Assembly: GCA_043771685.1 (NCBI GenBank)
Contig: JAYVGX010000034.1
Location: 11,690-75,689, forward strand
Source of the DNA: Minisyncoccota bacterium
GTDB taxonomy: Bacteria; Patescibacteriota; Minisyncoccia; Phycocordibacterales; UBA9973
Length of the DNA: 64,000 nucleotides
Direction of reading: 5' to 3'
Below are positions 24,647 to 45,313 of this stretch, one piece after another. How positions within the stretch are numbered: position 1 is the first letter of the stretch; each line of letters begins with the position of its first letter. The notes under the pieces were generated by a model, which searched no databases, was not told the origin of the DNA, and worked only from the letters and a program-made list of their open reading frames with translations. The position numbers and the translations under genes were made by a program.

Positions 24647-25152
24647 TTAAGTAAGTGGTAAGGTTGAAATCTTATCACACTTGTCGAGATATTCTGAATC
24701 ACCATTTATAACCCCAAATTGTTTAACTAATTTTGAATCAAGAAAATCTTGAATACTGTTTCCGATCATTATCTTTTCAAATTCAATATGTTCTTTGCAA
24801 AGATAAAGAACGATTTGTTTCTTGCTACTCGAATCAATATGAACAATAAGTATCCCATACTTCATGTTTAAATCGAAATGAAGTTGTACGCCATATTCTT
24901 TTACTTTTTCCAAAAAAAGATTGGATTTCTTTTAATTGAATTTCGTGAACCTTTGATATTACATTTTTCTGCCCACCTCTTCATTGTTGGCATTGGTGAA
25001 TCTGAGCACAATCCTACAATATTACCCTGTTCTTGAAACAGACGGAATTTTTCTTGAACAACATCATGAGGCAATGTTAGTTCATAAGATTTGCCTATCA
25101 ATGTGGAATCAAGGTCAAAAATTACTATTTTCTTCATCTTACTGGTATACAT
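24647..25152 (-). pseudogene. HAD-superfamily hydrolase interrupted by a -1 frameshift at a T7/A7 homopolymer.
   Basis: The N-terminal piece has HAD motif I (IVIFDLDSTL). It ends ...IKRNPIFFWKK*; the rest (LEKVKEYGVQ...IGNSIQDF) continues in another frame. Adding one T to the T7 run at 24911-24917 fuses them as ...NPIFFLEKVKEYG... Confidence 0.55.
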
Positions 25153-34809: not shown

Positions 34810-35790
34810 CTACTTTAACATCTGAGTTACGAGCGCAGTCATTTGGTCTTTTTTGTTTGGATTACTTTCAGCGATGAGCAATGTAAGCGCGGTCAAGCTG
34901 GCAGGGTTAATATTGCGAGATTTTTTAGCACGGGCTTTACGTAAAAACCAAATAAATGAAAAAGCTCCGGAACGCTTGTTCCCGTCTACATACGGATGAT
35001 TTTTGACCATAAAATAAAGTAAGTGTGATGCCTTTTCTTCGATACTTGGATACACATCTTTACCACCAAATGATTGCATAACATTACCTACGATACCTTC
35101 GACGCTTCCAGTATTTCTTTCTTGTGCAAAGATATCGGTAGCTTCATCTTTTCTCAAAAGTTCATTTCGAAAGCTTGAAATAGCTTGGGTTAATTCTTCC
35201 CCATTTAGTTTAACTGATTTTTTAGTTGTACCGATACTTTCTAAATTGTCGTGGTCATATGCATCCAGTGATACCCACGTAGATGAGAATTCTTTCACTA
35301 ATTCTAGTATTGCCTTTGGATCGAGAGTGACGTGTTCAGGTAGTAGATTCTGAATATCGCCTACTGCTTTCATAAAAGAATCATAATTCTTTCCAATCTG
35401 CTTGCGGTTTATTGTGTAGCCTTTGGTGATATGTTCTTTCAATGTTTTAGTAGCCCAGATGCGAAACTGAGTACCTATTACAGAGTTAATCCTATATCCA
35501 GTAGCGATAATCAAGTCTAAATTATATAATTTTACAGTTCTTTTGATTTCTCTTGAGCCCTCAATTTGAACTTGTAAGGATTCCTTACAAGTTGCTTTAC
35601 TACTTAATTCTCCATCCTTATAAATATTATTAATATGCAAAGTTATGTTTTGCGGAGTAACATCAAACATTTGAGCTATCTGCGCCTGCGTAGCCCAAAG
35701 TGTCTCGTGCGAAAAATCCCCACGGAGCTCGAGTGCCCCATTTTTAGCTTGATAGATTATCAACTCTTTATTTTTTGTAATCTTTTTCAT
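34810..35790 (-). CDS. RhuM-family N-terminal domain fused to a C-terminal Fic/Doc domain.
   Basis: N-terminus LDLIIATGYRINSVIGTQFRIWATKTLKEHI is the RhuM signature. C-terminus NHPYVDGNKRSGAF is the Fic/Doc motif HPFx(D/E)GN(G/K)R. Confidence 0.7.
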   Translation of the reverse strand: MKKITKNKELIIYQAKNGALELRGDFSHETLWATQAQIAQMFDVTPQNITLHINNIYKDGELSSKATCKESLQVQIEGSREIKRTVKLYNLDLIIATGYRINSVIGTQFRIWATKTLKEHITKGYTINRKQIGKNYDSFMKAVGDIQNLLPEHVTLDPKAILELVKEFSSTWVSLDAYDHDNLESIGTTKKSVKLNGEELTQAISSFRNELLRKDEATDIFAQERNTGSVEGIVGNVMQSFGGKDVYPSIEEKASHLLYFMVKNHPYVDGNKRSGAFSFIWFLRKARAKKSRNINPASLTALTLLIAESNPNKKDQMTALVTQMLK

Positions 35791-35891: not shown

Positions 35892-36173
35892 CTATTGGTT
35901 AACTTTAACTACGAGTCCTATGCTTGCTAACATATCTGCAACTCTTTCACAACTTTCCTTATCTCCTTCGTAAACTTTAGCGCTACCGAATTGATCTACC
36001 ACATATGCATAATGAGATGCTGTGTCACTTGAACATCCGATAGCACACATTAGTTGTTCTATCACATCATCAAAAGTATGACAATTACAATTAAAAAGAA
36101 TCACATTCCAGATCAATTCTGGTTTTATCGAGGTTATTGTTTTTAGATTAATTTTAGTTATCGTTTCAGACAT
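35892..36173 (-). CDS. clpS: ClpS-like Clp-protease adaptor, 4 nt downstream of hsdR.
   Basis: IWNVILFNCNCHTFDDVIEQLMCA...ASHYAYVVDQFGSAKVYEGDKESCERVADML aligns to the ClpS core (YKVILLNDDYTPMEFV...AVH..G.A.C.V...E.AE.KV). Confidence 0.55.
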   Translation of the reverse strand: MSETITKINLKTITSIKPELIWNVILFNCNCHTFDDVIEQLMCAIGCSSDTASHYAYVVDQFGSAKVYEGDKESCERVADMLASIGLVVKVNQ

Positions 36174-36176
36174 ACA

Positions 36177-39100
36177 CTATGCGGGTTGAAATTCTCTATA
36201 AACACGGACTGTTTCCATATAAATAGATTCTATTAAGCGTTCTGTCTGCATTACTTCGGTGATTCCTTTTTGAATCAAAAGAAGTCTTACATTCTGACGA
36301 ATACGAGCTTTGATGGTTTCGTTGTTTGTCCAATCAATAGTTAAGTCTCTACGAATACGCTTCGTAAGTTCCTTAACAAAGTCTTTTATATCTATTCCTG
36401 ACTTTTTAAGATCAGGGTCTGTTTGTAAGGTGTCGTAGAAAGTTATCTCTTCAGGTGAAAGTCCGAGCGAATGGCTTTCTTCATCAAGTTTCTTGATTTC
36501 ATCTGCAATCCCAAGGAGTTGTTTAATTACCTCCGCTGAACTAATAATATTATTCTCATACTTCTCAATAACTTTTTTTAGTAAATCAAGCATAGTCTCG
36601 TAACGAGCTTTATTATTTTTTGAACGAGCTTTAATTTCAGTTTCCAGCAATTTTCTTGTTGCGTCTATAGCAAAATTTTTGAATTTTACATTTTTTATTT
36701 CTTCCTCAAATTTTTTATCAAAAATTGATATTTGTTTTGTATTTTTACCTTCACCAAACAAATTAATAACCCCTTCTGCTTGCATAGATTGATCAAGTAA
36801 ATTTCTTATCGCACTCTCAGCCTCTTCAGGGAAAATGGTTCCAGGAATATAACCTATTTTTTTAATATATTCTTTTATCGCTTGGTAGAAAGTAATATTT
36901 GATGAAAATACCAAAGCTTTTTCGTCAGGCATAATTGATGCGTGAAGTTTCGAAATAAGTGAGACAAGTTCAAAATATTTCATTTTTCTATCATCTGATA
37001 AAACAGAATTATTTGAGATAACACATTCACTTGCTTCTTGTAAAAGTAGAGAAAGTTCCTGACCACTTTTTTGTTTATATGAATTAAAATTTAGATTACC
37101 AAAATAACCTTTTATCTTTTCATCAAGTTCTTGTATTTTTTGAACAACATCGTCAACTTGAATAATCGCATTCTGATCAATCTTTCCATCATACATCGAT
37201 AGTGCTTTCTTTAAATTTTCTGCAAGTCCAATATAATCCACGATCAATCCAGCTGGCTTATCTTTATGTACTCTGTTTACACGAGCAATTGCCTGCATGA
37301 GACCATGATTCTTTAATGGTTTATCAAAATACATTGTATGTACGCTTGGTACATCAAAGCCGGTAAGCCACATATCACAAACTATAACAAGACGTAATGA
37401 GTCTTTATTGCTTTTAAATCTCTTTTCAAGATTTTTAGTATTACGTTCTTTTTGCATAGAATCTTTATACTCATCGCTATTTGAAATTACCACAGCACAC
37501 TCTGGGGCATCCTTAATTTTTTGTATTTCTTGATATAAAGATACCGCAATTCTACGACTCATAGTTACAATCATACCCTTGCCTTCAATTGGTCTTTGAT
37601 TAAAATGCTGTACAATATCTTTTGCAATTTGTTCAATGCGACTCTGCGTACCAACAACTTTTTCAAGAACAGTCCATTCTTTTTGAATTTTTGTTTTTTC
37701 CTCTATAACAATATCACCAAGAAGTTCATCAAATAATGAATTTATGTCTTCTTTTGCAATACCGAGTGGTACGAGTCGTGCTTCATAAATAATATCGACG
37801 GTAGCACCATCTTTAACTGCTTCACTTAATTTATATTCACTAACAATATTACCGAAGACTCGCTGTGTATTCTGACCATCTTCTTTCGCAACAGGTGTAC
37901 CAGTAACAGCCAAGAAACTTGCTTGGGGTAATGCTTTTCGTACGTTTCCAGCAAGTCCGCTATATTGTGTACGGTGAGCTTCGTCAGCAAGAACAATAAT
38001 ATTTTCTCTTTGTGAGAAATAACTAAATTCTTCTTTATAGTCTTGAAATTTTTGAATTGTTGAAAAAATAAGCCTACTAATTCCATTATCAAGTTGCTTA
38101 ATCTGGTCACGTAAATCAAGAATACTTCCTGCTCGATGAGATACATCCTTGTACCCAACTCGTGCGAAAAGTTTTGAAAGCTGGTCATCAAGGTCTTCAC
38201 GATCAGTCAAAAATAGATATGCAGGACTTTTAAGTTCCTCAATGTTCTTAGTCTTATTCACATAGAAAACCATAGAGAGTGATTTGCCAGATCCTTGTGT
38301 GTGCCAAAAAACCCCAATCTTATGATCTTGTTCTCCACGCACTGCACGGAGTGTACTTTCAACCGTTGTATTTACTCCATAGTACTGATGGTACAAACAC
38401 ATCTTTTTTGTAAATGTTACCGCTTCACCATCTCCATCTGCTTCAAAAACAAAGAAGTTTTGCAAAACATCCAACAGTCGTGTTCGATCAAATAATCCTT
38501 TAGCTAGTACTTCTAGTTGATTAGTATTCTTTGGTGCGTCAGTAGGGGTTGTAATACCTTTCCATGTTCCATATCTTTCCCATGAAGATGAAATGGTTCC
38601 GTGTCGCGCGTTAATAAGATCGGAAAGACCGATAACTTGATTATATAAAAATAGTTTTGGTATTTCTTTCTTATATCTTTCTACTTGTCTGTATGCTTCA
38701 CCAATTGTAGCTCCACCGTGTACAGCGCTCTTTAATTCAAAAAGACCGATAGGTAATCCATTAATGAAAACAACTACATCAAGACGACAAGTAGAATCTA
38801 TTCCCTGAACTGTAAACTGTCTTACGGCTAAAAACTCATTTGAATCTGGATTATTAAAATCAACAAGTTTTACTAGGTCAGTTTTTTCTTCTTCGTTTCC
38901 ACGCCAAGAAGTTTTCTTGCCATTCACAAGCCATGAGTAAAATTCTTTATTACCAAGCATTAGATCATTGTGATGATAATCTGCAATATCTTTTACCACC
39001 ATTTCTGCTTGCTCTGCAGGAAGTGATGGGTTGATTCTACGAATAGCACCAAGGAGTCTGTCTTTCAAAACAACACCTCGAAAATCCTCACGCTCTGCAC

Positions 39101-39209
39101 GAGGTTGCCCAGGATTTATGTCTGGGCCATATACATACTCATAACCCTGACCTTGTAGCCATTCGATGAGAGATTGTTCTGTTAAGTTGTTTTCGTTTAG
39201 TGTGTTCAT
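36177..39209 (-). CDS. hsdR: Type I restriction enzyme R subunit.
   Basis: 1010 aa. N-terminal nuclease domain, SF2 helicase motifs (TQGSGKSL; DEAHRTQYS), and a type I R C-terminal domain. Confidence 0.9.
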   Translation of the reverse strand: MNTLNENNLTEQSLIEWLQGQGYEYVYGPDINPGQPRAEREDFRGVVLKDRLLGAIRRINPSLPAEQAEMVVKDIADYHHNDLMLGNKEFYSWLVNGKKTSWRGNEEEKTDLVKLVDFNNPDSNEFLAVRQFTVQGIDSTCRLDVVVFINGLPIGLFELKSAVHGGATIGEAYRQVERYKKEIPKLFLYNQVIGLSDLINARHGTISSSWERYGTWKGITTPTDAPKNTNQLEVLAKGLFDRTRLLDVLQNFFVFEADGDGEAVTFTKKMCLYHQYYGVNTTVESTLRAVRGEQDHKIGVFWHTQGSGKSLSMVFYVNKTKNIEELKSPAYLFLTDREDLDDQLSKLFARVGYKDVSHRAGSILDLRDQIKQLDNGISRLIFSTIQKFQDYKEEFSYFSQRENIIVLADEAHRTQYSGLAGNVRKALPQASFLAVTGTPVAKEDGQNTQRVFGNIVSEYKLSEAVKDGATVDIIYEARLVPLGIAKEDINSLFDELLGDIVIEEKTKIQKEWTVLEKVVGTQSRIEQIAKDIVQHFNQRPIEGKGMIVTMSRRIAVSLYQEIQKIKDAPECAVVISNSDEYKDSMQKERNTKNLEKRFKSNKDSLRLVIVCDMWLTGFDVPSVHTMYFDKPLKNHGLMQAIARVNRVHKDKPAGLIVDYIGLAENLKKALSMYDGKIDQNAIIQVDDVVQKIQELDEKIKGYFGNLNFNSYKQKSGQELSLLLQEASECVISNNSVLSDDRKMKYFELVSLISKLHASIMPDEKALVFSSNITFYQAIKEYIKKIGYIPGTIFPEEAESAIRNLLDQSMQAEGVINLFGEGKNTKQISIFDKKFEEEIKNVKFKNFAIDATRKLLETEIKARSKNNKARYETMLDLLKKVIEKYENNIISSAEVIKQLLGIADEIKKLDEESHSLGLSPEEITFYDTLQTDPDLKKSGIDIKDFVKELTKRIRRDLTIDWTNNETIKARIRQNVRLLLIQKGITEVMQTERLIESIYMETVRVYREFQPA

Positions 39210-39213
39210 AAAT

Positions 39214-39789
39214 TTATTTTCCAGTTCCGCTTCTTATCGTTTCAATTATTTGAGTTGTTGGCACAGGACTATTCCCGTTTTTAAGATACCCAGTTTCCTG
39301 AACATCAAACATTGTTCTTGTAACCTGTAATAAGATTGCATTCTTTGTCTCTGCGTCATTATCAGATTCCGTACCTCTTACAGAGTCTAAAATTCTTTGA
39401 TGGGAATTAAGAATCAATTGTCTATGTTTATTTATATAATACATGTTCATTTCAGCAGAATAATTTCTAGAGAAGTGGGCGACCAAGTAACCTCCCGCAG
39501 AAATGATCACTAATTTTAATAAAACATTTTGTTCTAAAATTGTATTCCAAATTCTTTGAAAGAAAGTTCCATCACCATCTATGGATAACTGTTTCCCAAA
39601 AACGAATATACAAGCCATAAGGGCTGTAAAAATAAGTGAGCTAAACATTCCTAGTGAATTCTTATCAGCCTTCTGTTTATTACCCAAAAAAGAGTATTTT
39701 TTGAAACTGAATATTTTCCATCTAAATAAATTAAACCCTTCTTCTGTGAATTCACCCTCAGCCATTCTTTCAAATTCTCTACCGTACAA
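39214..39789 (-). CDS. Hypothetical two-TM protein, likely the C-terminal portion of a frameshifted larger gene.
   Basis: TM hairpin LGMFSSLIFTALMACIFVFG ... LLKLVIISAGGYLVAHF. The frame stays open upstream to 39881 without a start codon. Confidence 0.4.
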   Translation of the reverse strand: MYGREFERMAEGEFTEEGFNLFRWKIFSFKKYSFLGNKQKADKNSLGMFSSLIFTALMACIFVFGKQLSIDGDGTFFQRIWNTILEQNVLLKLVIISAGGYLVAHFSRNYSAEMNMYYINKHRQLILNSHQRILDSVRGTESDNDAETKNAILLQVTRTMFDVQETGYLKNGNSPVPTTQIIETIRSGTGK

Positions 39790-39881
39790 TCTAACTTCTT
39801 GACCTTCTGCGATTGTTCCACTAACTTCTACTGACTTCTGAACTTTTTTAGTTAATTCATTTACAGTTTTAAGATTGTCCT

Positions 39882-40286
39882 CTAATTCTTTAGATTTTTT
39901 TCTAAATCTTTTTGTCTAACATCGTTTGCTGGATCTGCAAATTGTAAATAAGTTAAAATTGGATTTAATTGAGATATAATAGATTCTTCCTTTTGTCTTA
40001 CGAAAGCTAATTTTGATTCTCTTTGATTTACATCACTGTAACTATCAATAATTTGTGAATTAAGTTCAGAGATTAGGTTAGTCAAAACATTCTCAAAAGT
40101 TCTCTCATAATTAGGAATCTGTTCTAGTGTTAGTTTATAGCTAAAAATTCTATCGATGATAGTTTTTATTCTTTGTAAATTAGGTTCAATGCTTGTTAAC
40201 TCACCAGCTTCTCCAAGGTTATTTCTAAGAAGTTTTTGCCAATCCAAGTTCTTGTATTTTTCTATGATTTCTTGATTTATTGCCAT
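39882..40286 (-). CDS. Hypothetical helical protein of 134 aa, likely the N-terminal portion of the same frameshifted gene.
   Basis: Ends ...QKDLEKNLKN* just after an A7 tract. An A8 tract would read through as ...QKDLEKKSKELEDNLKTVNELTKK... into the 39214-39789 frame. Confidence 0.4.
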   Translation of the reverse strand: MAINQEIIEKYKNLDWQKLLRNNLGEAGELTSIEPNLQRIKTIIDRIFSYKLTLEQIPNYERTFENVLTNLISELNSQIIDSYSDVNQRESKLAFVRQKEESIISQLNPILTYLQFADPANDVRQKDLEKNLKN

Positions 40287-40291
40287 AAAAT

Positions 40292-41527
40292 TTAAATTAA
40301 TTTTGCTAATAATTGATCTCTCGACTGTTTAAGATTTTTAGATTCATTTTGTATAACATTCATCATTTGAAAAAGAGGTTTTATTTTTTTAATAAATTCA
40401 CCAAAAATTTCTTTTTCAGGAACAGTAATTTTTATATTCTTGATTGTTTTTGAATTAACGGCTGTTGCAATCGATGAAGTACTTCCTAATGAATCATAGT
40501 TATAACTTTTCATTATAAGGTATAGATATTCTGTAGATATAAACGAGCCATCTCTAATCTTGAGATGAGCGATTGCTTCATTTGATAACATTTCTTCTGT
40601 CGTAATAGCAACCTTACCCATAGTCAACTTAAAACTAACAACTAATGTCCCCTTAGGGATTATGGGGATATTAAATTTATTAACCGCTTCTCGGGTCAGA
40701 CATTCATCGGTATGTGATATAAAAATACCTCCAACTCCGAGATCTCTAATAGAGATCCATTTTATATCTTTAGGATTTTTTGAAAACCATTCTTGTTCCT
40801 GCCTTGGAGGAGTTCTTCCAATTGAAATATCACATATATTATCAAGACTATCAATTGTCCATCCCTCAGGAATTTCTCCCATCTCGCTCTCAATCATTTT
40901 CACTTTTTCATATCCAGGAAATTTGAAATTCACAAACCATTCATTAAAAATAGTCTGAGCAGTAAGTTCGAGATTTTTAATTATTATATTATTATTTTCA
41001 ATCTTTGAATCATATGCATTTAAGATTGAAGCAATTTTTTCCTGAGTCTCAAAATCTGGAATATAGAATGTATAATCTCGCAACTGACCTAAGGATACAT
41101 TTTTTATTGTGCTACCGTTAGCATTACTGTCTATGTGTTTTTGAAATCTCTGATCTAGTAAAACATAATACATATAATCTAAAACAAACTCCCTCTTCAC
41201 ATTAATATAACAAGCACTTTTACCAAGAATACATTTTTCACCTCTATATTTTGCCAAATTACCGATTGTCCCATTAATTGATAGCAAGAGCGTTTCTGTG
41301 CCTAAATCTTTTTTATGTTTTAGGTACTCTGACTCGCTAATTCTTTTGGTTTCTTTCTTAATTGAAATGTGCCCATTGTCCAAATTATTACCATTAATAA
41401 AATAGAATTCACCATTATCCTCATATTGAGGAGTTCCGTGCAACCCATCTCCAATTCTAATTGCAATATCAGCTAATGTAACTTCTTTTCTTTTAGTCTT
41501 ATTTATTTGTTCTAATAATTTACTCAT
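40292..41527 (-). CDS. hsdS: Type I restriction-modification specificity subunit.
   Basis: Two target-recognition domains, each followed by conserved helical repeats (...LGQLRDYTFYIPDFETQEKIASILN...; C-terminal ...LKQSRDQLLAKLI). Confidence 0.85.
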   Translation of the reverse strand: MSKLLEQINKTKRKEVTLADIAIRIGDGLHGTPQYEDNGEFYFINGNNLDNGHISIKKETKRISESEYLKHKKDLGTETLLLSINGTIGNLAKYRGEKCILGKSACYINVKREFVLDYMYYVLLDQRFQKHIDSNANGSTIKNVSLGQLRDYTFYIPDFETQEKIASILNAYDSKIENNNIIIKNLELTAQTIFNEWFVNFKFPGYEKVKMIESEMGEIPEGWTIDSLDNICDISIGRTPPRQEQEWFSKNPKDIKWISIRDLGVGGIFISHTDECLTREAVNKFNIPIIPKGTLVVSFKLTMGKVAITTEEMLSNEAIAHLKIRDGSFISTEYLYLIMKSYNYDSLGSTSSIATAVNSKTIKNIKITVPEKEIFGEFIKKIKPLFQMMNVIQNESKNLKQSRDQLLAKLI

Positions 41528-41531
41528 ATAT

Positions 41532-42428
41532 TTATTCTTTAAATTTCATCCTAATATCCCTATCCAAAGGCAGTTGTTTTAAAAATGTCAGTATTTCTTG
41601 TTGTGTCGGTTTTTTGACATTAGTAACAAAATAATCTTTTTGGAAAATCGGCTTTCCCTTCACTGCACACTCGTCTACTAGAGATTCAATAAACTCTGCG
41701 GGAACAGCGTCAAATGACAAGAGGGCGGTGATAAGCACATATTCATGAAATGCTTCAGCATCTTCAATTTCAACTTTTATGCGTGTAGAAATTGCTCTCA
41801 GCGTCTTGATAAATGAGATTGCTGATTGTTTTTTAAAATTAAAATTCTTTTCAAATACGCATACGATAAAAAAGCGCATTTTGTTATTTTTTCCTCCTGA
41901 GGAGCTACCAATTAATGATTCACTTTCCCAGAGTTGATCCTCAACCATATCTACAACACCAGCTTTCTCATTCCAAACAAAGTTTCTATCATCTGAAATA
42001 GTATCCCTGATAATTCCAAATGTACTTTCTTTTTGTATTCCACATTCCTTAATAACAAAGGTATGCATTCGTATAAGTGTTTGAATAGTCATATCCGCCT
42101 GTTTTCGAGCAAATCTTTTTGATTCTTCATCTTGTAACTCAATCTCACCAGCAGAAACGACATATCCAAACTTGTCGCGATTTTCAGCATGATCAAGAAG
42201 TTGTAGTATCGGTTCGTCATCTAAAAATTGTTTTCGATTTTTCTTTATATACTCAAATGTAAAAGGATTTATTTCTGCTTCAACCACGAGAAAAACTCGA
42301 CTAATACTATCGTCTAAAATTCTCGTTTCTTCAGATAAACGAACTTGCGAATACGGACCGTCCTCACCCCACATTTTTTTGTAATCTGTTTGTGTGAGCT
42401 TTTTCTGTTGTTTGTTATCGTTTTTCAT
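41532..42428 (-). CDS. Hypothetical cytoplasmic protein of 298 aa embedded between rhuM and hsdS.
   Basis: Clean ORF tightly packed in the hsd operon (4-nt and 2-nt gaps). No family recognised. Confidence 0.4.
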   Translation of the reverse strand: MKNDNKQQKKLTQTDYKKMWGEDGPYSQVRLSEETRILDDSISRVFLVVEAEINPFTFEYIKKNRKQFLDDEPILQLLDHAENRDKFGYVVSAGEIELQDEESKRFARKQADMTIQTLIRMHTFVIKECGIQKESTFGIIRDTISDDRNFVWNEKAGVVDMVEDQLWESESLIGSSSGGKNNKMRFFIVCVFEKNFNFKKQSAISFIKTLRAISTRIKVEIEDAEAFHEYVLITALLSFDAVPAEFIESLVDECAVKGKPIFQKDYFVTNVKKPTQQEILTFLKQLPLDRDIRMKFKE

Positions 42429-42429
42429 A

Positions 42430-43551
42430 TTATTTTTTATTTTTTTGAACTGTCAACTTTTTGTTGATACTTGATTTTTCCAAAAGTTTTTTTACTTCTT
42501 TGTCAAAATCAGAAATATGTTTTTTATCTTGCTCTACTCGATATTTTTCGTATTCTTGTAATGCTAGTGCTTCCGCCACTTCGTGACTAATTTTTCCATT
42601 ATCTTGTAATATTTGTTCCTCATTAAATTTCAAAAATGAATCGAGTTTTTTCACCCAATCTTTCATTTTCATGAGTATCCCTTTCTTTGCCTGTATTTCT
42701 GCATAGTCCAAATACATAGTCACAATTCTATTAAGAAAATCTAGTTCTTTTTCTTGTAAGTAATTTTTTGCTATAATTACATCATTTTCACGAATAAGAC
42801 CATTTGGTGAATTCTTCCAACTCATCAAGCCAATATTTTCTTTTTTACTACTAACTCTACTATAAACAATCTCTGCAGCGGTTTGACCCGTAATTGCAAA
42901 GTGTAATTTATTTTGTACGGTAGCAAAAAACAGTTTCGTTATTTTATTAGTAGGATCATAGTCTGCACTACATTGTGAATAAATATCAGTAACTTTCTGA
43001 TACATACGCCTTTCACTTGATCGAATGTTTCTTATTCTCGCAAGTTGTTCTTCAAAATAATCAATACCGAAAATAGTATCAGTATTTTTAAGTCTCTCAT
43101 CGTCCATAGTAAAACCTTTGATAATGTATTCTTTTAATCTTTCTGTGGCCCAAATTCTAAATTGTGTTGCTTGTGAACTGTTTACACGATACCCAACTGA
43201 TAGGATAGCGTCTAAATTATAAAATTTTACAAACTGATTTTGTGTTTTTCCTACAATAGCTCCATGGATAGTGGTATGTTCCAAAATGGAACTAACCAGT
43301 TTTTCGTCTAATTCTCCACTTTCGAAAATATTCTTTAAGTGTTTAGTGATTGCTGGTCTTTGTACTCCAAAAAGGAGAGCTATTTTTTCTTGTGTCAGCC
43401 AGATATTTTCATCACGCAAAAATATATCTACTTTTACCTTTCCATTTGGTGTGGTGTAGAGCAGAAACTCTGTAAAACTATTATTTGGTACAATTTTTGT
43501 AATCTTTTTTTTCATATAATTAAAATCCAAGTTCTTTAAGATTTTTCTCAA
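42430..43551 (-). CDS. rhuM: RhuM-family protein.
   Basis: NLDAILSVGYRVNSSQATQFRIWATERLKEYIIKGF. It overlaps the hsdM 3' end by 32 nt. Confidence 0.75.
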   Translation of the reverse strand: MRKILKNLDFNYMKKKITKIVPNNSFTEFLLYTTPNGKVKVDIFLRDENIWLTQEKIALLFGVQRPAITKHLKNIFESGELDEKLVSSILEHTTIHGAIVGKTQNQFVKFYNLDAILSVGYRVNSSQATQFRIWATERLKEYIIKGFTMDDERLKNTDTIFGIDYFEEQLARIRNIRSSERRMYQKVTDIYSQCSADYDPTNKITKLFFATVQNKLHFAITGQTAAEIVYSRVSSKKENIGLMSWKNSPNGLIRENDVIIAKNYLQEKELDFLNRIVTMYLDYAEIQAKKGILMKMKDWVKKLDSFLKFNEEQILQDNGKISHEVAEALALQEYEKYRVEQDKKHISDFDKEVKKLLEKSSINKKLTVQKNKK

Positions 43552-45313
43552 TTTCTTTTTCTAATTCACGACCAACAGTAAAAGCTTCTCGAAGTTCACT
43601 TGAAAGTTTCTGCATTTTTTCTTCAAAAGAAATTCCATCATCTTCTACATCAGTAAGCCCAACATATCTGCCAGGAGTAAGAGTGTATCCGTTCTTTTTT
43701 ATTTCTTCTAGGTTGGCAGATTTACAGAAGCCTGAAATATCTTCATATTTCCCAGCCCCTGATTCTCCACGCCATGCACGGACTGTATCTGTAATTTTTG
43801 CAATCTGTTCTTTACTAAAGATAACTTGCTTGCGAGAAATCTGTTCAAATGTATCTCGTGCATCAATGAATAATGTTTCTCCCTTGCGTTTGCGAAAACG
43901 GTCACCATTTTTATTTTTAGATAAGAACCATAGAGACACGGGTAGTCCAACATTATAGAAAAGTTTGGATGGACAAGAGATGATGACATCTACCATATCA
44001 GCTTCAATAAGCTTTTGACGAATTTCTCCTTCTTTACCTGATACAGCAAGTGCTCCATTGGGCATAACGAATCCTGCCTGACCATTAGGTGAAAGGTGGT
44101 GAGCGAAGTGTTGTACCCAAAGAAAGTTTGCATTACCTGATGGAGGTGTTCCTAAAAATATTCTTGGATCATTGTCAGAAAGTTTTAATGGTTCCCATTC
44201 TGCGTTAAAGGGAGGGTTCGCAATTACGAAATCTGCCTGTAGGTGTGGGAACTTATCTTGATAGTAAGTATTACCAAGTTCAATCTTTCCAGAGAGTCCA
44301 CGAATAGCTAGGTTCATCTTGCAAAGGCGAAGTGTAGTTTGGTTGCTTTCTTGTCCACTAATAGCAAGTTTTGATGGATCCATTTTATGGTCTCGCAAAT
44401 ACTCACCCATAGATACAAACATTCCTCCACTGCCACAAGCAAAGTCTGCCACACGAGCATTTTCGTAAGGTTGAAGTATTTCAACAAGTAATTTAACGAT
44501 TGATCTTGGTGTAAAAAACTCGCCTCCACGCTTTCCCTCTGATGAAGCAAATTGACCTAGGAAGTATTCATAGATTCTTCCAAGAATATCTTTCTCCCGA
44601 TCAAAGTCATGATCAAAAGATATTTGTGAAAAAATATTAACAAGTTCACCAAGAACGGTATGATCAAGATTTACTTTTGTGTATACACGAGGTAGGACAT
44701 TTTCAAGTTGTACAGGATTATCTTTCTCAATCAACTCCATTGCGGTATCCAAAACCTTTCCGAGATCAGGACTCATGGTTTTTGTTTGCAAAAATTCCCA
44801 ACGAGATTTTTCTGGAACATAGAATACCCCTTCAGCTGTATAAAAATCTTTTGTTTCAAGAATAGACTTCCGAGCTTCTTCTGTTGGGACATAGAAGTCT
44901 TCATCCTTCGGGTCTTTAGTTTTTAAAGTTAGAACTTCACGCTGTTTATAAAATGAGTCTGATATATATTTCAAAAATAAAAGTCCAAGTACAATATTTT
45001 TATACTCGGACACGTCAACATTACCTCGTAATTTATCTGCCGCCATCCAAAGCTCTTTTTCAAAGCTGAGGTCGTGGTGTTGGTTTTTATCTAAAACTTT
45101 CTTTGTGACGCTCTTTTGCTGTTCACTAATACGATTCTGTATTTCTTCTGAGAGCGAAGCCTTTGGGATTAAGTAAGTTGGTTTAGAGGGGTCTCCTATA
45201 TTTTCAGCTGTAATTTCACCCTTTTTGATCTTTTGATGAACGGCTATACGGCTAATACCCAACATCTTTGCGAGTTGTGTAGGGGTTACAAATTGTGATT
45301 TATCGATTGACAT
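43520..45313 (-). CDS. hsdM: Type I restriction-modification N6-adenine methyltransferase subunit with an N-terminal HTH.
   Basis: HsdM N-domain, SAM-binding DFACGSGGMF, and catalytic FVIANPPFN. Confidence 0.9.
   Translation of the reverse strand: MSIDKSQFVTPTQLAKMLGISRIAVHQKIKKGEITAENIGDPSKPTYLIPKASLSEEIQNRISEQQKSVTKKVLDKNQHHDLSFEKELWMAADKLRGNVDVSEYKNIVLGLLFLKYISDSFYKQREVLTLKTKDPKDEDFYVPTEEARKSILETKDFYTAEGVFYVPEKSRWEFLQTKTMSPDLGKVLDTAMELIEKDNPVQLENVLPRVYTKVNLDHTVLGELVNIFSQISFDHDFDREKDILGRIYEYFLGQFASSEGKRGGEFFTPRSIVKLLVEILQPYENARVADFACGSGGMFVSMGEYLRDHKMDPSKLAISGQESNQTTLRLCKMNLAIRGLSGKIELGNTYYQDKFPHLQADFVIANPPFNAEWEPLKLSDNDPRIFLGTPPSGNANFLWVQHFAHHLSPNGQAGFVMPNGALAVSGKEGEIRQKLIEADMVDVIISCPSKLFYNVGLPVSLWFLSKNKNGDRFRKRKGETLFIDARDTFEQISRKQVIFSKEQIAKITDTVRAWRGESGAGKYEDISGFCKSANLEEIKKNGYTLTPGRYVGLTDVEDDGISFEEKMQKLSSELREAFTVGRELEKEIEKNLKELGF

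Follow-up and report, generated by a model that had tools for sequence, protein, structure and literature searches.

In a 64,000-nucleotide stretch of DNA from a Minisyncoccota bacterium (contig JAYVGX010000034.1, positions 11,690 to 75,689; hereafter called the window), the gene that lies between hsdS and hsdR of a Type I restriction-modification (RM) operon was found to encode a 357-aa membrane protein, and it is present there as an allele in which a poly(A) tract is one nucleotide short. This gene, designated here as X (39214..40286, minus strand), represents an uncatalogued family of RM-embedded membrane proteins with a homopolymer ON/OFF polymorphism, the function of which we infer from the genomic setting. 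The short tract has the appearance of a naturally occurring ON/OFF switch in what is probably an accessory gene for defence, and we put at roughly 55% the probability that X is a defence accessory membrane protein embedded in the RM operon, with a poly(A) site that takes two states, ON and OFF, in a slippage-type manner.

In the window, the coding sequence of X is distributed over two overlapping frames of the minus strand. The first one, ORF A (open reading frame; 39882..40286), starts with ATG and encodes 134 aa, namely residues 1-130 of X, which constitute the N-terminal helical domain, followed by four out-of-frame residues and a stop; its product hence ends with ...QKDLEKNLKN*. The second one, frame B (39214..39915), supplies residues 131-357 and is open throughout (39915-39214), as described in a preliminary description of this DNA; the first codon at which it could start is a TTG at 39789. 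The two frames overlap only at 39882-39915 (34 nt), and a single A7 homopolymer (T7 on the plus strand) lies inside this overlap at 39895..39901, which is 11 nt away from the position formerly assigned to it (39884-39890). When one A was added to the tract in silico, the frame was restored and an ORF of 357 aa was obtained, just as had been predicted for A8. This fusion has full-length homologues (n = 41) of 323-362 aa with 100% query coverage, E-values down to 1e-204 and identities up to 89-90%, a similarity that chance could not produce.

In the alignment, furthermore, the repaired junction, DLEKKSKELEDNLK (DLEKK|SKELEDNLK), agrees at every residue with DLEKKSKQLEDNLK of the closest intact homologues, and at nucleotide 386, the position of A7 in the window, an A8 is found in L001, which is the most similar of the intact genes (89% aa identity). 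Because the junction matches the homologues and L001 has A8 at the same nucleotide, X is one gene with its lesion in the tract; in other words, ORF A and frame B are a single gene broken at the poly(A) tract. The tandem motif DLEKNLK/ELEDNLK to which the preliminary description drew attention is an artefact of this break, as NLKN is the out-of-frame reading past the tract, where the real sequence of the protein is DLEKKSKELEDNLK. No further stop or indel was found in the repaired gene X beyond the tract. Also, the ratio of nonsynonymous to synonymous substitution rates (dN/dS) of X against its intact homologues was ~0.03 in the in-frame and out-of-frame halves alike and was equal to that among the intact genes, showing that gene X is under strong purifying selection. 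A sole lesion together with dN/dS of ~0.03 means that the lesion is either very recent or not permanently inactivating, and the same two observations rule out X as an ancient pseudogene.

Both alleles of X, broken and intact, exist in public assemblies of the same strain. By an exact-sequence look-up, the 357-aa product of A8 (i.e., the ON allele) was found on record as P0320 in three ENA contigs, the longest of which is 84.5 kb; this protein had been missed by our first homologue search because it clusters under a 191-aa representative. As to A7 (i.e., the OFF allele), the exact product of ORF A (P0319, 134 aa) was located on 4 contigs from NCBI, Logan and ENA (8 by the count of contigs read), and products of frame B are on record as P0198 and P0321, other assemblies having gene calls of 191 aa and 183 aa for this frame. 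The exact hsdS of the same strain is carried by seven contigs, a number in rough agreement with four OFF plus three ON. Over 6.4 kb, L014 and L015 (from SRR23617303 and SRR23617304, respectively) show 100% identity to the window, A7 included. In contrast to these two states, products of X with A5, A6, A9, A10 or A11 were absent from the collection in exact look-ups.

Homopolymers are a classic site of indel errors, and the A7 or A8 call might hence be a mistake of sequencing or assembly in a gene that is uniform in the organism; both split genes of the window are indeed one base short of an intact frame, and the ON form is reported from ENA assemblies only. We nonetheless consider such an error quite improbable, given that A7 recurs in assemblies of several runs from NCBI, Logan and ENA, including the two that are identical to the window over 6.4 kb. 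Also, the window contains 88 A/T tracts of at least 7 nt (61 A7, 23 A8 and 4 A9), and 86 of them, 27 of which are 8-9 nt long, lie within long ORFs without disturbing the frame. Same-strand frame breaks coincide with the remaining 2/88 tracts only, and the assembly is therefore not full of homopolymer errors.

The second of these breaks, in a HAD-like gene (24647-25152, minus strand), provides a control for X. An 83-aa ORF with HAD motif I (DLDST) stops just past T7 at 24912-24918, and the motif-IV-like GNSIQD is in a same-strand ORF of another frame; T8 would fuse the two into a protein of 168 aa, of which the HAD-like identity received no confirmation in the comparison with PDB sequences. 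Truncated forms of this gene were found on five contigs, while the exact look-up retrieved the fused form from none of the pipelines. Since the control gene is not dimorphic, the dimorphism of X cannot be put down to pipelines that call homopolymers differently in general. The split HAD-like gene, in turn, looks like a fixed pseudogene.

A second A7/A8 dimorphism was found in an RM locus of the Candidate Phyla Radiation (CPR). Namely, hsdM in the Type I operon of Candidatus Yonathbacteria is split at GATAAAAAAATGAAG (A7), which is at ~3126-3140 of L006 and recurs in L007, L008, L035 and L041. The exact A8 product of this hsdM (597 aa) is on 11 contigs, and the split products of 179 aa and 418 aa are on 73 and 51 contigs, respectively. 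In Helicobacter, Neisseria and Mycoplasma, a change of ±1 in a coding homopolymer is known to toggle a gene of an RM locus, and both states occur in natural material (PMC3936762, PMC6789123). The case of X differs in that an embedded accessory gene is toggled instead of mod or hsd, although it is hsdM in Yonathbacteria, and also in that the tract of 7-8 nt belongs to environmental CPR bacteria and not to host-adapted ones.

It could also be supposed that the A7 allele is still decoded to full-length X, either because RNA polymerase slips and inserts an additional A or because ribosomes slip by -1 on A_AAA_AAU, in which case the tract would tune the dosage of X and would not turn it off. Both a -1 slip and an additional A in mRNA would restore exactly the ancestral ...EKKS..., and the genome, at 34% GC, is of a kind in which this may be considered; indeed, slippage is known to rescue frameshifts at poly(A) in reduced, AT-rich genomes as well as in other bacteria (PMC5009743, PMC4256274). 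The tract is, however, only A7, whereas transcriptional slippage in bacteria is cited at runs of ~9 A/T (PMC5009743), and such recoding is not needed given the A8 allele in genomes. Furthermore, no stimulatory RNA structure is present downstream of the tract (z = -0.5), and programmed -1 frameshifting is hence unsupported. Taken together, continued decoding of the A7 allele appears extremely improbable to us.

The fused 357-aa protein has the architecture that had been foreseen in the preliminary description: a helical N-terminus, a transmembrane (TM) hairpin and a C-terminal domain, as evident from hydropathy and from an AlphaFold2 (AF2) prediction. Hydrophobic segments are at residues 210-232 and 254-273, and helices are predicted by AF2 at residues 203-230 and 255-304. 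The hairpin (residues 210-273; 39469..39660, minus strand) is thus composed of TM1, an acidic loop of ~18-20 aa, and TM2 with an AGG motif. Exactly two hydrophobic segments were found in 59 of the 66 diverse relatives of X, among which the Lys/Arg content was 5.5 in the flanks versus 1.2 in the loop; this bias points to a hairpin with both ends inside, leaving both soluble domains in the cytoplasm. The cytoplasmic C-terminal helical domain (residues 274-340; 39268..39468, minus strand) is the most conserved part of X, with a column identity of 0.77 as compared with 0.34-0.61 elsewhere, and is characterized by the motif FSRNYSAE..NKHRQ.ALNSH...TKNAILLQ...F..QETGYLK.

X has no family match in Pfam, PADLOC (5,027 models; none at E<=1), NCBIfam or PHROGs. 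Pfam scans of its relatives (39 close and 66 distant ones) gave coiled-coil and TM noise together with sub-threshold DUF6161 only, and the family profile searched against PDB sequences gave only coiled-coil noise (E>=0.1) and no fold match. One homologue, P0029 (L009 7001-7981), which has no RM neighbours, was named "NADH:ubiquinone oxidoreductase subunit 3 (subunit A)" by the Joint Genome Institute; this name is almost certainly spurious and driven by the TM hairpin.

As the preliminary description had pointed out, X (40286-39214) occupies the slot between hsdS (41527-40292) and hsdR (39209-36177), which is the slot of PrrC in the prr locus of E. coli with the Type I RM system EcoprrI. PrrC has been described as almost exclusively embedded in Type I RM systems. 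By analogy, the shared slot suggests a latent second-line effector riding inside the RM operon. The two proteins themselves are, nonetheless, different; PrrC is a soluble RNase, whereas X belongs to the membrane and has a TM hairpin. In addition, X has neither the Walker A motif nor an AAA/ABC match in Pfam that would be shared with the P-loop (ABC-like) NTPase of the PrrC type, and no PrrC model or anticodon nuclease domain was matched by X in PADLOC, Pfam and NCBIfam at E<=1. With both NTPase and nuclease features lacking, X is not an anticodon nuclease of the PrrC type.

With abortive-infection (Abi) effectors having two TM helices, such as SLATT proteins and the TM effectors of CBASS (Cap14-like), retron and Pycsar, X shares the combination of a cytoplasmic regulatory domain and a two-helix hairpin as well as the context of a defence island. 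Unlike the SLATT-type effectors, however, X has a large and highly conserved cytoplasmic domain after TM2. A SLATT model was not matched in Pfam by X, its 39 close relatives or its 66 distant relatives, nor was it in PADLOC, and the neighbourhoods of X examined contained no CD-NTase/SMODS, TIR or SLOG enzymes and instead had RM, RhuM, NYN and Fic genes. In the absence of a model match in X or ~100 relatives and of a signalling partner, X is not considered as a member of SLATT. A broader likeness to Abi effectors is suggested by architecture and genomic context, and no known effector model or fold was matched.

A possible distant link was obtained with DUF6161 (PF19658), which is itself an uncharacterised family. 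Three distant relatives of X, P0113, P0148 and P0103, scored 25.1, 17.5 and 16.7 bits, respectively, against the gathering score of 27, and the end of their coiled coil, their TM hairpin and their C-domain were aligned to positions 47-215 of the 216 in the model. X and its close CPR relatives had no match to DUF6161 at all in the Pfam scan. DUF6161 proteins of Pseudomonadota have been predicted by a protein language model to be an antiphage family that is homologous to none of the known defence proteins (bioRxiv 10.1101/2025.01.08.631966).

The family of X is large. In an exhaustive profile search, representative clusters (defined at 50% identity) numbered 2,373 with a cut-off of E<=1e-3 and 985 with one of E<=1e-10, and their members are mostly 320-350 aa and match X from end to end. 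Close homologues are all in CPR genomes, that is, in Saccharibacteria, Yonathbacteria, Peribacteria, Giovannonibacteria and Azambacteria. In 13 distinct lineages the genes are arranged as hsdS-X-hsdR and are only 1-6 nt apart, and relatives were found also between a fused methyltransferase (MTase) and HsdS, in an operon of a different Type I family (hsdR-X-hsdS-hsdM), in an arrangement with a LexA-like gene (LexA-X-HNH-MTase-MTase), near an MmeI-like enzyme, and in a cassette array on a plasmid of Vibrio tubiashii together with Hhe, AbiH, HEPN-associated and GIY-YIG genes. The family of X thus recurs inside or beside RM systems. No relatives were found in the viral contigs of IMG/VR, and the plasmid collection gave the single distant match in Vibrio only.

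Several minor observations were made in the course of this survey. Extra DNA is present between X and hsdR in L032 (7074-8009, ~0.9 kb) and L039 (6966-8468, ~1.5 kb); the gap between hsdS and hsdR hence seems to be an insertion hot spot with room for more than one accessory gene. Also, P0013, P0015 and P0073 have Trp at the invariant Gly of the family (e.g., SAWWYLVAHF), which suggests that these are from UGA-recoded lineages (code 25, where UGA is Gly) translated with code 4. In L053 and L054, translation with table 11 does not give the query.

Defence genes embedded in RM operons are an established concept (PMC11411939; bioRxiv 10.1101/2024.01.29.577857), and it is by this "guilt-by-embedding" (bioRxiv 10.1101/2024.01.29.577857; TgvAB, PMC11411939) that we assign X a putative role as a defence accessory protein and candidate effector. 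Genes embedded in RM, BREX, DISARM and Hma systems, such as TgvAB in the Type I RM system of Vibrio cholerae, RloF, and the HEC/PDC candidates of PADLOC, resemble X in being unrelated genes placed inside an operon. TgvAB and RloF are, however, nucleases of the GmrSD/DUF262 type, whereas X is a membrane protein, and X matches none of the PDC/HEC candidates, though its neighbour genes match PDC-S05 and PDC-S23.

Based on these features, we propose that the tract of X would toggle between A7 (OFF) and A8 (ON), most simply by slipped-strand mispairing at replication. In the ON state, X would act at the inner membrane, where the N-domain could serve as a sensor or regulator and the TM hairpin with the C-domain as an effector; its action might be, for example, depolarisation or permeabilisation after oligomerisation, in a logic analogous to that of PrrC or the Abi effectors with two TM helices. 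The OFF state would then remove a costly effector. It might, furthermore, lower the expression of hsdR through lost translational coupling or polarity, while methylation would be intact with hsdM and hsdS untouched. Indeed, hsdR starts 4 nt past the stop of X and is likely to be translationally coupled to X, and the stop caused by A7 is ~670 nt upstream of the hsdR start.

Alternatively, X might serve the Type I enzyme in a structural or regulatory capacity, such as that of a membrane tether or a modulator of HsdR, and not be an autonomous effector; the tract would then mainly affect the restriction activity. This would fit the tight coupling of X to hsdR in the 13 lineages and a probable dependence of hsdR translation on ribosomes that complete X. 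Also, the Yonathbacteria populations have intact X with hsdM mostly OFF, which argues against X as a toxin that fires merely on the absence of the methylase complex, and X is accordingly not an obviously lethal toxin without the M2S complex. On the other hand, relatives of X occur with other types of RM systems, in the defence cassette array, or alone, all of which argue for a self-contained function, and a mere accessory of the Type I enzyme is in our judgement unlikely.

Several points weigh against a defence accessory protein with a two-state tract. The evidence for ON and OFF is at the level of assemblies, with A8 of the ON contigs deduced from the protein sequence, and the contig counts are small and may stem from related samples. 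The tract is not maintained in related lineages; it is A8 in L001, an in-frame A7G in L028 and A6 in L005 and L032, and is absent in L030, L031, L033 and L034. Also, A7/A8 is short for a classical contingency locus. The polarity of the A7 allele on hsdR is an effect that may exist, and some homologues are alone among housekeeping genes, so that the link of the family with RM systems is not obligate. In L040 (~905-925), furthermore, a homologue of X that is most similar to P0027 has apparently lost 8 nt between short ATAC repeats and is thereby broken; while this lesion is seen on a single 2-kb contig, it is not in a homopolymer and indicates that plain decay also occurs in the family of X.

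Many of these points would suit another explanation, in which A7 is a one-off, recent loss of function from A8 that is segregating; a dispensable or costly gene would be decaying at a mutational hot spot, and no reversible or selected switch would be involved. The poor conservation and shortness of the tract and the occurrence of only two states are as expected from such a mutation, and the independent inactivation in L040 as well as the HAD-like gene uniformly broken at T7 mean that such frameshifts do arise and become fixed in this genome. Nonetheless, ON and OFF are both common in the few assemblies available (3 versus 4), the same A7/A8 dimorphism recurs in hsdM of another CPR RM locus, and the constraint on X is not relaxed in terms of dN/dS. 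A segregating loss of function thus appears to us somewhat unlikely. The phase variation by homopolymer that was raised in the preliminary description is, in sum, favoured by the A7 and A8 products in assemblies of the same strain and by the control gene without dimorphism, but it does not find a counterpart in a conserved tract among relatives.

A switchable defence accessory protein in this slot would be of some significance. Accessory genes embedded in RM operons have repeatedly proved to be new antiviral systems, as represented by PrrC, TgvAB and the HEC/PDC candidates of PADLOC. The family of X, with its ~2,400 clusters, is missing from the current catalogues of defence systems, and its recurrence by RM systems of several types and in several phyla makes it a concrete candidate for experimental testing. 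The dimorphism of short poly(A) tracts in X and in hsdM of the related locus suggests slippage as a means by which environmental, episymbiotic CPR bacteria may vary the state of their defences; to our knowledge, the documented examples of this have so far come mainly from pathogens adapted to a host. If the switch indeed reaches hsdR via translational coupling, it would be a simple way to separate restriction from modification. A far more extensive proposal, which we regard as doubtful, is that X represents a new class of RM-coupled membrane effectors, found in CPR bacteria as well as outside them, which would be distant relatives of DUF6161 and would work as an Abi-type second line or as a guard of the Type I enzyme, and that its stochastic poly(A) switch would also toggle restriction through polarity on hsdR while methylation stays on; together with hsdM of Yonathbacteria, X would then be the first sign of phase-variable defence loci in Patescibacteria.

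All the genes of the operon around X are on the minus strand in the order of hsdM, a RhuM-family gene, a gene for a 298-aa protein, hsdS, X, hsdR, a ClpS-like gene and a RhuM-Fic/DOC gene. The intact hsdM (43520..45313) encodes 597 aa with Pfam domains HsdM_N and N6_Mtase, and hsdS (40292..41527), which is 5 nt upstream of X, encodes two target-recognition domains (two stretches of Pfam Methylase_S). Also intact is hsdR (36177..39209), encoding 1010 aa with HSDR_N, SWI2_SNF2, T1R_D3-like and T1RH-like_C in Pfam. Between hsdM and hsdS are the RhuM-family gene (42430..43551), a candidate PDC-S05 of PADLOC, and then the gene for the 298-aa protein (41532..42428), which is the second uncharacterised embedded gene of this operon and the product of which has no match in Pfam, PADLOC, NCBIfam or PHROGs. 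The RhuM-Fic/DOC gene (34810-35790) is another PADLOC candidate, PDC-S23; with the two RhuM-family genes flanking the system, the operon constitutes a composite defence island. Scans for promoters and terminators gave no excess over shuffled controls.

The ClpS-like adaptor gene (35892-36173) encodes 93 aa and starts 4 nt past the stop of hsdR, and it is not at this position in the related loci examined. In E. coli, HsdR is under proteolytic control in restriction alleviation. The window as a whole is chromosomal, having 34% GC and carrying LepA, several aminoacyl-tRNA synthetases and MurJ, and its LepA shares 80-83% identity with proteins that carry the names Paceibacterota, Nomurabacteria or Patescibacteria.

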